Below, one piece after another: positions 8,487 to 11,522 of a stretch of 13,634 nucleotides of DNA (its first letter is position 1; every line of letters starts with the position of its first letter). The stretch covers positions 1-13,634 of the forward strand of contig JAVYNJ010000017.1 of the NCBI GenBank assembly GCA_038735675.1, read 5' to 3'. This DNA is from Nanopusillaceae archaeon. GTDB lineage: Archaea > Nanobdellota > Nanobdellia > Nanobdellales > Nanobdellaceae. The position numbers were made by a program, and so were the translations under genes. A model generated the notes under the pieces. It saw only the letters and a list, made by a program, of their open reading frames with translations, was not told where the DNA came from and searched no databases.

Positions 8487-8819
8487 ATGTTAGAGGAGGA
8501 GAATATTATAAAGGAATTGGAAAACAAGATTCGAGAATTGGAAAAATTAACTTATAAGTATAAAAAAGCTTATTTTCTAATTTTTAATAAATTTAATAAG
8601 TTTATAAACAAGAAAAATAAAGAAAATGCGAAAATAAAACATTTGATCGAAAAATTAAGTGAGATGATAGAAAATATAAATTCGAATTTTTATAAGCTCG
8701 ATACTCTTGAGAAGAATTTAGAAATTTTAAAAAAAGAAATTGAAAAATTAAAAATCAGGTTAGATAGGTTAGAAGAAAAGTATTTAAAAATAGATAAAAA
8801 AATAATAGAAAATGAGTGA
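8487..8819 (+). CDS. Small coiled-coil protein, function unknown
   Basis: 110 aa, K/E/L/I/N-rich with heptad-like spacing (IKELENKIRELEKL, LEKNLEILKKEIEKLKIRLDRLEEKYLKI). It overlaps the next ORF by 8 nt (ATGAGTGA). Confidence 0.55.
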   Translation: MLEEENIIKELENKIRELEKLTYKYKKAYFLIFNKFNKFINKKNKENAKIKHLIEKLSEMIENINSNFYKLDTLEKNLEILKKEIEKLKIRLDRLEEKYLKIDKKIIENE

Positions 8820-10047
8820 TATTGATTTTTCTTCTATAGCTGAGCAAATTTTAGATATTGTAAAAAATTTACAAATAAGAATCTCAAACATAGAGAAAAA
8901 AAGTAATAAATTTTTAGAAAATAAAGTCTTTTATGATACTATAACTGAGATAAAGAAAAAATTGGATAATCTAGAAGATAAAATATTTGAAATTTCAAAA
9001 ATAGCGGATAAGGATTTCTTAGAAAATGTAAGAAATTTAAATAATTTAAAAACGAAAATAGAAATCTTAGAAACAGAATATAAAAACTTAATAAAAGATT
9101 CAGATTTTTTAGAAATTAAGTCAGAATTATTGAAGCTGGAGAAAAGACTTAAAAAGCTTGAAGAATATGCGAAAATAGATGAAATTTTAACAGAAATAAA
9201 CAATATAAAGAGCGTTATAAATCAAATTTCTAGTGATTTAGAATTAATAAAGTTGAATTATATAGATAAAGACAAATATAACGAATATTTTGAAAAAATG
9301 AAGGATGTAGAAAAAGCAATATCTAGAATTTCTTTTGAATTAAAGCAAAAAATAACGGATATTATCAAAATTAATGATAGATTAGATAAGATAGAAAATG
9401 AATTTTTGCCGAATATACAAGCTTCTTTAGAAAGATCTTTAAATGAATTAAAAACCGATATAGGTAAAATTAAAGAAAAAATTCAAAATAGCAAAATATT
9501 AGAGATGATTAGCGAAGAGGATATTAAAAATATACGTGAATTGAATTCTTATAAGGAAGCATATAAGAAAATATTAAATTTGGAAAACAGATTAAATAAT
9601 ATTGTTAGTTCTTTGTATTCATTAGAAGATGAAATGCGAAATAGTTTTAGAGAAGAGTATGATAAAAAAGTTGAAAGAATAAAAGCTATAGAAAATAGAA
9701 TAGATACTAATGAAAAGTTAATAAATAATTTTAGAAGTTCTATAGATGGTCTAAGAAAGGAAATAACCGATCTTCGTGATATAATGTTATATTTAACTAA
9801 AGAAAATGATAAAACTAACGAAAAGATTAAAGAGTTGGAGAATAAAATAAAATTAGCTAATATAGAAGAGCTTTATGATTATATAGAAAGATTAAAGCTT
9901 TTAGAAGCAGAAATTGAAAATTTAAAAAGAGAATTAATTAATAGAGACAACTTTGATAGAGAAAGAATAAAAAATATAGAGTATGCATTAAAAAAGCTTT
10001 ATGATAGGCAAAACGAAATTTTGGAAAACTTGAAGAGAAGAATATAG
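8812..10047 (+). CDS. Long coiled-coil protein, function unknown
   Basis: 411 aa that look like coiled coil almost end to end, with recurrent (I/L)EN(K/R)(I/L) segments: NLENRLNNI, AIENRIDTN, ELENKIKLA, DKIENEF. It has no P-loop, no TM segment and no Cys/His cluster. Confidence 0.65.
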   Translation: MSDIDFSSIAEQILDIVKNLQIRISNIEKKSNKFLENKVFYDTITEIKKKLDNLEDKIFEISKIADKDFLENVRNLNNLKTKIEILETEYKNLIKDSDFLEIKSELLKLEKRLKKLEEYAKIDEILTEINNIKSVINQISSDLELIKLNYIDKDKYNEYFEKMKDVEKAISRISFELKQKITDIIKINDRLDKIENEFLPNIQASLERSLNELKTDIGKIKEKIQNSKILEMISEEDIKNIRELNSYKEAYKKILNLENRLNNIVSSLYSLEDEMRNSFREEYDKKVERIKAIENRIDTNEKLINNFRSSIDGLRKEITDLRDIMLYLTKENDKTNEKIKELENKIKLANIEELYDYIERLKLLEAEIENLKRELINRDNFDRERIKNIEYALKKLYDRQNEILENLKRRI

Positions 10048-10413
10048 TTATTTACTTTTTACTATTTCTATAATTTTTATTAATTTTTCTATTGTATAAG
10101 TTAAATTTTTCATTACTTTATTTAAATATTCTTTTTCTTTATCTTTAATGTGATTATAAATTCTTTTAATAGAGTTTTCATCTATTAATTTATCGTCTTT
10201 AACAATATATATTTCATCGTAAAGATTGTTTTTACTTAAAATGTTTAAATCTTTTGCTAAATTTTTTATAAAATTTCCTTCAGTAGTAGAATATTCTTTT
10301 TTAAATATTAAAACTATTTTTCTATTTTTTATCATTTTTTTACGTTCTTTGATCTTTTCTATTTTTTCAGATTGTATTTTTAGAAATTGAGGTGATAAAG
10401 AAATAATTGGCAT
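10048..10413 (-). CDS. Hypothetical 121-aa basic protein (orphan)
   Basis: The ORF has no motif I recognise: a lysine-rich N-terminus, a predicted beta-alpha-beta core (KIVLIFKKEYSTTEGNFIKNLAKDLNIL...EIYIVKDDKL) and a helical tail. An alternative start is Met27 (ATG at 10335). The only support for coding is ORF length and position. Confidence 0.45.
   Translation of the reverse strand: MPIISLSPQFLKIQSEKIEKIKERKKMIKNRKIVLIFKKEYSTTEGNFIKNLAKDLNILSKNNLYDEIYIVKDDKLIDENSIKRIYNHIKDKEKEYLNKVMKNLTYTIEKLIKIIEIVKSK
10056..10060 (+). terminator. Possible oligo-T terminator for the long plus-strand transcription unit
   Basis: This is the first T5 run after the TAG at 10045-10047. It lies inside the 3' end of the convergent minus-strand ORF because there is no intergenic space. 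T-runs are common in this genome, so specificity is low. Confidence 0.25.
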
Positions 10414-10447
10414 AATATTCTATTCTTTTTTATATTTCTTAATATTT

Positions 10448-10500
10448 TCAGTAGCTACTCCCATCATCATCAATCAGGGGGTGCTCACCAACATCATCAA
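10448..10500 (-). ncRNA. Box C/D sRNA candidate (2'-O-methylation guide), 53 nt
   Basis: The minus strand reads 5'-UUGAUGA|UGUUGGUGAGCACCCC|CUGA|UUG|AUGAUGA|UGGGAGUAGCUA|CUGA-3'. That parses as a canonical C box (UGAUGA), D' box (CUGA), 3-nt loop, C' box (AUGAUGA), an exactly 12-nt guide, and D box (CUGA). It sits in a GC-rich island within an AT-rich 122-bp intergenic region. A TATA-like TTTTATTTTT is centred about 25 nt upstream (10521-10530, minus strand). Caveat: the C-to-D' spacer is 16 nt with the canonical C register, or 13 nt with the shifted AUGAUGU register, not the usual 12. Confidence 0.65.
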
Positions 10501-10535
10501 TTTTTATTAAATTTTATCATAAAAATAAAAATCTT

Positions 10536-11522
10536 ATGGATATTAGTTTTGTTTCAAATACAGTTTTTATTTCGATATTACTTCTAGCATCTATTCAAGA
10601 TTTTCTAAAAAAAAGTGTTAGTGATTCAATACATTATTTTTTAATTATATTTGCCTTTTCAATTACTATATACAATTTATATATCGGAAATCTCCCTCAG
10701 AATAGCTTTCTATCTTATTTAATTTTAATTTTTTTCTTTTTAATGTATCTTCTTAAGTTTTTGGCAATTGGAGATCTATATATTATGTTTTCATTATTTT
10801 TTTTCTTATCAAATTTTAGTTTTCAACAAATTTTTAAATTTTTGATAATGCTAGCAGTGGGTGGTAGTATTGTTCATGGTTTTGAGGCTTTAAAGATATT
10901 TTACAGAAACAAGGAATTTAAAAATCTTTTTTTTATAATTTTTTCAATTTTATCAAGCCTAATTGCTGGAATAATGTATTTAATTTCTTTTTCTAATTTC
11001 TTAGAAAAGTATCCATTATTCTTTTTATCTTCTCTTTTATTTCTAGTTTCGGCAACAATTTTGAAAATTTATGAAAACAGGTTAAAAAAAGAATTAACCT
11101 TTGAAAGGACAATAGACGAACTTGTAGAAGGAGATTGGATAGAAAATGAATTGTTTATAAATGAAATTCCTGAAAATCTATCAAAAGACTTTGAAGAAAA
11201 CTTTTTTTTAGAAAGGAAAGAGAAAGGATATATAATAAAATTAAAAAATCCTAAAAAAGAGTTTCGATTTTTAGTTTTTCTTATTTTTTTAGCGCCTTTA
11301 GTTTTTCTTAACGTTGTTGAAATGTTTATGATTTCTACAATGTTTGTAATTTTCTTTTTAACCATTATTCATGACAAAATATTTAAGGATGACTTGGGTC
11401 TTTCGAGAAAACAAATAGAATTATTAAAGAAAGTTTTTGATAAAAATACAAAATTTATTGTAAAAGAAGGGGCTCCTTTTGTACCAGCAATAACCTTAGC
11501 TTATATTTTTTCTATGATTTAA
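10536..11522 (+). CDS. Archaeal A24-family aspartyl signal peptidase (FlaK/PibD-type preflagellin/prepilin peptidase) with an enlarged soluble insertion
   Basis: 328 aa, polytopic. LLLASIQDFLKKSVSD matches the first catalytic-Asp motif as I recall it from FlaK (ASVQDFRSREIED); this is D22, nt 10599-10601. LAIGDLYIM is the GxGD-type second Asp; this is D80, nt 10773-10775. The C-terminal APFVPAITLAYIFS parallels FlaK IPLIIPITLSYL. A hydrophilic ~65-aa domain (aa ~181-245, containing VEGDW) interrupts the TM bundle, as in FlaK. Confidence 0.7.
   Translation: MDISFVSNTVFISILLLASIQDFLKKSVSDSIHYFLIIFAFSITIYNLYIGNLPQNSFLSYLILIFFFLMYLLKFLAIGDLYIMFSLFFFLSNFSFQQIFKFLIMLAVGGSIVHGFEALKIFYRNKEFKNLFFIIFSILSSLIAGIMYLISFSNFLEKYPLFFLSSLLFLVSATILKIYENRLKKELTFERTIDELVEGDWIENELFINEIPENLSKDFEENFFLERKEKGYIIKLKNPKKEFRFLVFLIFLAPLVFLNVVEMFMISTMFVIFFLTIIHDKIFKDDLGLSRKQIELLKKVFDKNTKFIVKEGAPFVPAITLAYIFSMI

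Follow-up and report, generated by a model that had tools for sequence, protein, structure and literature searches.

In archaea, the C/D and C'/D' box pairs of a box C/D sRNA form a k-turn or k-loop that takes up L7Ae and then Nop5 and fibrillarin, and the target nucleotide facing the fifth guide position upstream of D or D' then receives a methyl group on its 2'-OH from fibrillarin. In yeast, snR52 and Spb1 provide routes to 2'-O-methylation at or next to the position equivalent to E. coli U2552 of 23S rRNA. The bacterial enzyme RrmJ/FtsJ/RlmE places a 2'-O-methyl group at or beside this position as a stand-alone protein without a guide RNA, and loss of the A-loop U2552 methylation slows the growth of E. 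coli (review PMC7994747). N. equitans encodes fibrillarin (NEQ125) and Nop56 (NEQ342), and its sRNA10 (sR10) is listed with the D' guide AGUGAACACCCU against 23S GGGGUmGUUCACC (Randau, 2012, PMC3491384). This guide, aimed at 23S-2630 (alignment U2826), has been assigned to E. coli U2552, a site predicted in five of seven species (Dennis et al., 2015, PMC4644070), and the D guide of the same sRNA, AAAAUCCACACA, to C2606. N. equitans sRNA14 (sR14), for which PLEXY gave 'no prediction' (Randau, 2012, PMC3491384), carries the D guide AAGGAGUAGCUG, a CAGA D box and the D' guide GAAAGCACAAU. The 23S rRNA of this organism has AAGCUACUCC at the U2438 region and reads GACGGAAAAGCUACUCCGGGGGUAACAGC in a published alignment, where N14 stands first among the labels over the block starting at the site (Dennis et al., 2015, PMC4644070). 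Methanococcus maripaludis sR106 has the D' guide ACGGAGUAGCUU (Dennis et al., 2015, supplement), and the 23S rRNA of the same species reads AAGCUACCCC. A description of C/D sRNAs of Nanopusillus-type genomes was not found in the literature searched.

We analysed a 13,634-nt stretch of DNA (the window) and located a candidate box C/D sRNA gene at 10497..10448 on the minus strand, 50 nt from box to box. We are highly confident that this element is a box C/D sRNA of ~50-57 nt that would act as a double guide for the U2552- and U2438-equivalents in a hyperthermophilic Nanopusillaceae archaeon. The window DNA is archaeal, with 24.4% GC, and its protein genes include those for RtcB, a family-B DNA polymerase, dCTP deaminase and Pelota; the Pelota protein is 99% identical to that of the 'Nanopusillaceae archaeon' MAG GCA_038896015.1. 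Genes for fibrillarin, Nop5 and L7Ae were not found inside the window. At the Rfam gathering thresholds the only matches in the window were two tRNAs (67-69% GC). One of them, tRNA-Pro(CGG) at 419-489, overlaps by 19 nt the 3' end of a minus-strand phosphoesterase-like ORF (471-1052), whose final residues (…SSGAAGI) come from the GC-rich tRNA and may be non-coding.

The candidate lies in a 122-bp spacer (10414-10535) between the ORFs 10048-10413 (minus) and 10536-11522 (plus). Hyperthermophiles with low-GC genomes typically carry high-GC RNA genes, so that a spacer with a GC-rich island makes a sensible lead. The preliminary description had pointed to such an island here, and its length and borders for the spacer agree with ours; GC content peaks at 0.42 at the element against ~0.2 in the flanks. 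Its statement that this is the only sizeable intergenic region does not hold, since the region 2769-2889 is equally long, but contains tRNA-Gln. Window 8487-10047 encodes adjacent coiled-coil proteins of 110 and 411 aa with only faint Pfam matches; this pair keeps its position in all four clades considered below (L002-L004, L183-L185), as does a 121-aa protein, also without annotation, that is encoded downstream of the sRNA.

Read on the minus strand from 10497 to 10448, the element is AUGAUGU-UGGUGAGCACCCC-CUGA-UUG-AUGAUGA-UGGGAGUAGCUA-CUGA. The C box AUGAUGU (10491..10497), a variant of RUGAUGA with a 3' U, is followed by the 13-nt D' guide UGGUGAGCACCCC (10478..10490; N+5 position A10482) and the D' box CUGA (10474..10477). 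A 3-nt loop, UUG (10471..10473), leads to the C' box AUGAUGA (10464..10470), the 12-nt D guide UGGGAGUAGCUA (10452..10463; N+5 position A10456) and the D box CUGA (10448..10451). The C-D'-C'-D order, the 3-nt loop, the guides of 12-13 nt and the total of 50 nt are those of archaeal box C/D sRNAs, and the letters that form tandem G.A pairs (UGAUG and CUGA) can be read in the element. The candidate boxes C/D and C'/D' would fold as a k-turn and k-loop and recruit L7Ae, then Nop5 and fibrillarin.

Relatives were reached by a Pelota protein search followed by contig look-ups, which gave six genomes beyond the window: L002, L003, L004 (Candidatus Nanoclepta minutus), L183 (Nanoarchaeota strain YN1, complete genome AP031373.1), L184 and L185. 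All six keep the same gene order, with the 121-aa gene (minus), a spacer of ~120 bp, the membrane-protein gene and Pelota. The Pelota proteins of the seven genomes are 45-77% identical and fall into four clades (~45-60% between clades). All seven genomes have the UGAUG of the C box (10496-10492), the D' box CUGA, the C' box AUGAUGA, the D box CUGA and the same guide cores, and the remaining spacer diverges; the loop keeps its length of 3 nt and varies in sequence (UUG, AAA, UGA, AGG). The preliminary description had named conservation of the boxes in related genomes as a check, and all boxes are indeed kept in the same spacer of the six relatives. Separately, three independent contigs with the Pelota P0014 of a candidate lineage (L193:1-504, L194:1-489 and L195:3-491) all start within the membrane-protein gene, ~500 bp ahead of Pelota; from this shared start, the P0014 assemblies break at one point, which lies shortly before the sRNA spacer is reached. 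Scans of viral contigs for the sRNA and for the 23S variant described below gave no matches.

The alignment of these copies also settled the register of the C box. The minus strand had been parsed with a C box UGAUGA, which corresponds to 10499-10494 and leaves a 16-nt spacer to D', with 13 nt given as the value in a shifted register. We rejected the UGAUGA register because Nanoclepta reads UGGUGA there, which abolishes that box; Nanoclepta has UUGGUGAUGU in the C box region, and R-UGAUG-N remains as the register. The conserved box is AUGAUGU (10497-10491), and the 16-nt spacer is an artefact of the wrong register. A profile of N. equitans sRNAs (profile R1, below) likewise aligns the C box at 10497-10491, which makes the spacer 13 nt in the window. 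The rest of the earlier parse, namely the D' box CUGA, the 3-nt loop, the C' box AUGAUGA, the 12-nt guide and the D box CUGA, was retained. In L003, YN1 and L184 the C-to-D' spacer is 12 nt, and in YN1 and L184 it follows a canonical AUGAUGA. The window copy has U, not A, at the end of its C box. UGAUGU-type boxes occur in N. equitans, where sR13 has one as its C box and sR15 and sR26 each have one as their C' box (Randau, 2012, PMC3491384). The lack of a terminal stem had been described essentially correctly, and the same is published for the C/D sRNAs of N. equitans, some of which are circular (Randau, 2012, PMC3491384). The features listed earlier as oddities are therefore no anomalies: the long spacer was a register error, and both UGAUGU boxes and unpaired termini are found in N. 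equitans.

A pattern scan found the C-D'-C'-D layout once in the window, on the minus strand. The strict pattern was absent from all of 2000 dinucleotide-preserving shuffles, and with a looser pattern the shuffles had 0.0005 matches each on average. We then built a profile (R1) from 22 N. equitans C/D sRNAs (Randau, 2012, PMC3491384), leaving out sR10 and sR14 because they have guides in common with the candidate. Applied unfiltered to the whole window, profile R1 gave a single full-length match, at 10497-10448 (minus), with 19.8 bits and an E value of 8.6e-6; the runner-up was partial (E 0.83). On 146 kb of related loci, only the six syntenic copies reached E <= 1. In a permissive Rfam search of 191 nt, the best match was RF00095 (snoPyro_CD), a Pyrococcus family, with 32.4 bits, a local E value of 2.2e-5 and the full model length (1-58), and many other C/D families ranked below it. 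The element has the same box order and spacing as RF00095 but lacks the terminal stem of that model. At gathering thresholds Rfam did not call the sRNA, the RF00095 score being 32.4 against a gathering score of 45. Since its score is under this threshold, the sRNA is assigned to the general archaeal C/D class and not to the Pyrococcus-centred RF00095. The YN1 homologue (L183:4941-4989, minus) has fully canonical boxes and scored 24.8 bits with the N. equitans profile, yet gave no Rfam match even at E <= 0.01. The covariance-model or profile search suggested in the preliminary description thus picks out the site in two ways, by RF00095 below its gathering score and by the N. equitans profile. 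An unannotated box C/D sRNA on the minus strand, as first proposed, is borne out by the unique layout, the profile match and the conservation in six relatives.

A chance resemblance, or a decaying and non-functional sRNA relic, would fit the Rfam score under the gathering threshold, the non-canonical C box and the tandem UGAUGAUG repeats, which could be low-complexity sequence. The empty set of shuffles and the boxes held invariant over four clades, in a spacer that diverges around them, speak against such a reading; its probability is close to negligible, and conservation has largely refuted it already. The secondary structure bears on the same point. When 10442-10504 (minus) is folded as a single sequence, one guide can pair with the other (MFE -11.2 kcal/mol, z -1.9). 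A conserved hairpin between the guides was rejected, as the consensus fold reached only -1.3 kcal/mol, showed no covariation and had one pair broken in YN1 and L184. Because this internal hairpin is not conserved, the conservation follows the boxes and the guides.

The targets of the two guides were looked for in 23S rRNA genes by a metagenome scan requiring both predicted targets ~100 nt apart, which returned 57 loci. Two of these, L142 and L153, contain complete 23S genes of 62% GC within DNA of 27-30% GC, with A loops at L142:7055-7067 and L153:13279-13291; L188 is a third contig with the same gene set as L153. All three have GGGGUGCUCACC in the A loop of the 23S gene, and the D' guide UGGUGAGCACCCC forms 12 Watson-Crick base pairs with it. 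These are 23S genes of related, unlinked hot-spring Nanoarchaeales whose Lon-like gene is nearest to that of YN1, which has the other guide type. The Lon-like protein beside the L153 23S gene is 74% identical to that of YN1, 72% to that of Nanobdella aerobiophila and 52% to that of N. equitans, and L153 is also present in a Great Boiling Spring 85 °C enrichment sample. On the three 23S sequences the A loop was the best site for the D' guide, and only 3 of 3000 shuffled guides did as well. Searched against 174 kb of related DNA, the D' guide had just one other match, its own antisense strand. The target predicted earlier for this guide, 5'-GGGGU*GCUCACC-3', agrees letter for letter with the A loop of these three genes. 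With U2552 and U2438 numbered on E. coli rrlH, the D' guide would place a methyl group on the U2552-equivalent of the 23S A loop, an assignment that is well supported.

Several observations were made on the contigs that carry these 23S genes. An archaeal RNase P RNA (RF00373, 88-92 bits) lies ~1.6 kb upstream of the 23S gene, at L153:8755-8993 and L142:2512-2749; N. equitans is reported to be without RNase P (PMC3491384). A ProRS gene (L189:4320-5813) adjoins the 23S gene of the L153 lineage, and its nearest named homologues beyond a few AT-rich-genome relatives are from Desulfurococcales (~50%). A search with this protein gave no named Nanopusillaceae or Nanoclepta protein among the matches, and the YN1 ProRS was absent from the top 120. 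The likeness to Desulfurococcales, the order of typical hosts, may reflect plain conservation or host-related gene transfer. P0151, the best candidate for linking a 23S gene to a genome with the window-type sRNA, had no 23S gene adjoining.

A-loop sequences vary between lineages, and the D' guide varies with them. In N. equitans, the published guide AGUGAACACCCU, with the dinucleotide AA, faces the A loop GGGGUGUUCACC (UGUUC) of the same genome. The 23S gene of YN1 was found via its Lon-like gene on L187, which belongs to the same replicon (AP031373.1) as the sRNA locus L183; its A loop lies at ~18207 (reverse-strand coordinates) on the minus strand. Here the D' guide UGUGGACACCCC, with GA, forms 11 Watson-Crick base pairs with the A loop GGGGUGUCCACC (UGUCC) of its own 23S. 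In the window type, the guide UGGUGAGCACCCC, with AG, matches the A loop GGGGUGCUCACC (UGCUC), guide and 23S coming from different genomes. When the YN1 and window-type guides were swapped between the 23S sequences, the A-loop match was lost. Covariation of D' guide and A loop across the three lineages is thus well supported, as judged by comparing the guides with the rRNA genes. A scan of genome contigs showed GGGGUGUUCACC...GAGCUGGGUU as the common form of the A loop and its surroundings among DPANN archaea, Thermococcales and MAGs carrying the label Methanosarcinales. GCUCACC also occurs in the A loop of two archaeal MAGs, L044 and L119. A special meaning of the A-loop variation, which falls at E. 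coli 2554/2555, was rejected: crenarchaeal 23S sequences read UGCCC at these positions (alignment of Dennis et al., 2015, PMC4644070), so that such variation is not unusual.

These results also bear on whether the spacer holds an RNA gene at all. The island might instead be conserved as DNA, for example as a bidirectional promoter or a protein-binding site of the divergent genes; this would account for a divergent, intergenic spacer in which AT-rich upstream sequence, including a TWATAA box, is conserved as well. Such an element would not be expected to show all four boxes in the order C, D', C', D at spacings of 12-13 nt, to match an independent C/D profile or to contain two co-varying segments complementary to 23S rRNA, and we consider this explanation extremely unlikely.

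The second guide of the candidate sRNA points to a site in the same region of the 23S rRNA. The core GGAGUAGCU of the D guide forms nine contiguous Watson-Crick base pairs with AGCUACUCC in the 23S of L142, L153 and YN1, all of which have AAAAGCUACUCCGGGGG, as N. equitans does. Its N+5 pair falls on the U of GCU*AC, which is E. coli U2438, 114 nt upstream of U2552. The guide positions that pair are also those that are conserved: positions 2-9 (GAGUAGCU) are invariant in 7/7 genomes and position 10 in 6/7, and the unpaired positions 1, 11 and 12 vary freely. The D-guide duplex is as long as the nine base pairs that Dennis et al. (2015, PMC4644070) asked for in a guide-target duplex; the same authors call guides acting within ~100 nt 'double guides'. 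By itself the D match is weak, as 292 of 3000 shuffled guides (~10%) reach 9 bp somewhere in a 23S, and a search tolerating G-U pairs gave many comparable sites in AT-rich coding DNA. The U2438-equivalent is therefore a predicted target of the D guide with weaker support than that for U2552. The D target had been given as 5'-UAGCU*ACUCCCA-3'; 9/12 nt of it are present in 23S, as AAGCU*ACUCCGG, and the remaining three are not. With this reservation for the D target, both targets anticipated in rRNA were present in the 23S of related Nanoarchaeales.

Other targets were rejected. Neither of the two window tRNAs is complementary to either guide, which removed tRNA targets from consideration. For the D guide, a 16S target was discarded because the 16S alignment that Dennis et al. 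(2015) give for seven species does not contain GCUACUCC; gap characters in it could hide a match.

A transcript of the island could also act on the gene downstream of it. The 121-aa gene (10413..10048) has the same orientation as the island and begins 34 nt downstream of the D box, and the sRNA-plus-ORF arrangement is present in 7/7 genomes. In the window and L002 there is no oligo-T run or terminator between the D box and the ORF, and read-through into the 121-aa gene is thus possible. The island might then be mainly a cis-acting 5' leader of this gene, with k-turns that bind L7Ae to control translation or processing and with the guide role secondary or absent; L7Ae binding of mRNA leaders has been reported for archaea (PMC5539422). 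Such a leader would leave unexplained both the conservation of the guide cores and the joint change of the D' guide and the 23S A loop. In YN1, L184, L185 and L003 there are T-runs 3' of the D box, so that separate termination is possible there. We regard a mainly leader function as very unlikely. A leader role would be compatible with the guide role and would add to it, not replace it.

For the guide sRNA, transcription would probably start at a purine from its own promoter. A possible TATA-like element, UUUUUAUUUUUAUGA, lies at 10515..10529 (minus), ~26 nt upstream of the C box, as suggested by its sequence and a conserved upstream block. AT-rich DNA yields TATA-like matches cheaply; the upstream block is conserved in the window and Nanoclepta clades. 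The D' guide UGGUGAGCACCCC of the RNA would pair with the A loop (helix 92) and direct 2'-O-methylation of the U2552-equivalent, and the D guide core GGAGUAGCU would pair with AGCUACUCC, 114 nt upstream, and direct that of the U2438-equivalent. The sRNA would thus be a double guide serving two segments of domain V that adjoin the peptidyl-transferase centre. Most likely, it directs methylation of two 23S nucleotides near the catalytic centre, including the universally modified A-loop uridine. Site choice would lie in base pairing, unlike that of RlmE.

Compared with the described sRNAs, the candidate is closest to N. equitans sR10 and sR14. It shares with sR10 the A-loop uridine aimed at by the D' guide and a compact form; sR10 measures ~55 nt, its guide being 12 nt and its loop 3 nt long. 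It differs from sR10 in two letters of the D' guide, in which sR10 fits the different A loop of its own 23S, in an unrelated D guide and in its genomic location. With sR14 it has in common the core GGAGUAGCU of the D guide; sR14 differs in its CAGA D box and in an unrelated D' guide. The Nanopusillaceae RNA thus has an sR10-like and an sR14-like module in one sRNA. In N. equitans, the homologues of these two guide modules were abundant in RNA-seq, with 3,200 and 29,900 reads (Randau, 2012, PMC3491384). The D' guide of M. maripaludis sR106 includes the GGAGUAGCU core as well, but it stands at D' and not at D, the other guide of sR106 is unrelated, and pairing with the species' own 23S leaves one internal mismatch. 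As judged from these comparisons, the candidate is an ordinary addition to a known class, both of its guide modules having counterparts in N. equitans.

A wider proposal can be offered only tentatively, and we think it rather doubtful as a whole. The D' module of sR10 (U2552) and the D module of sR14 (U2438), which N. equitans has on separate sRNAs, may have been joined in one Nanopusillaceae RNA that would methylate both nucleotides and transiently tether two strands of domain V, 114 nt apart and on either side of the peptidyl-transferase centre, thereby acting as a folding chaperone of the large subunit in a symbiont of 0.6 Mb, with the D' guide tracking the drift of the A loop (UGUUC, UGUCC, UGCUC) by compensatory change.

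An RNA gene missed in the annotation of Nanopusillaceae is now added, and annotation based on Rfam will miss this sRNA family. The finding leaves the knowledge of C/D RNPs unchanged. Guide modules may be re-assorted between sRNAs, and the family is a clean, small case in which a guide RNA co-evolves with the rRNA that it targets. The finding also suggests that these symbionts, for all their extreme reduction, retain a guide dedicated to the A-loop Um2552-equivalent, which fits this methylation mattering for ribosome function.
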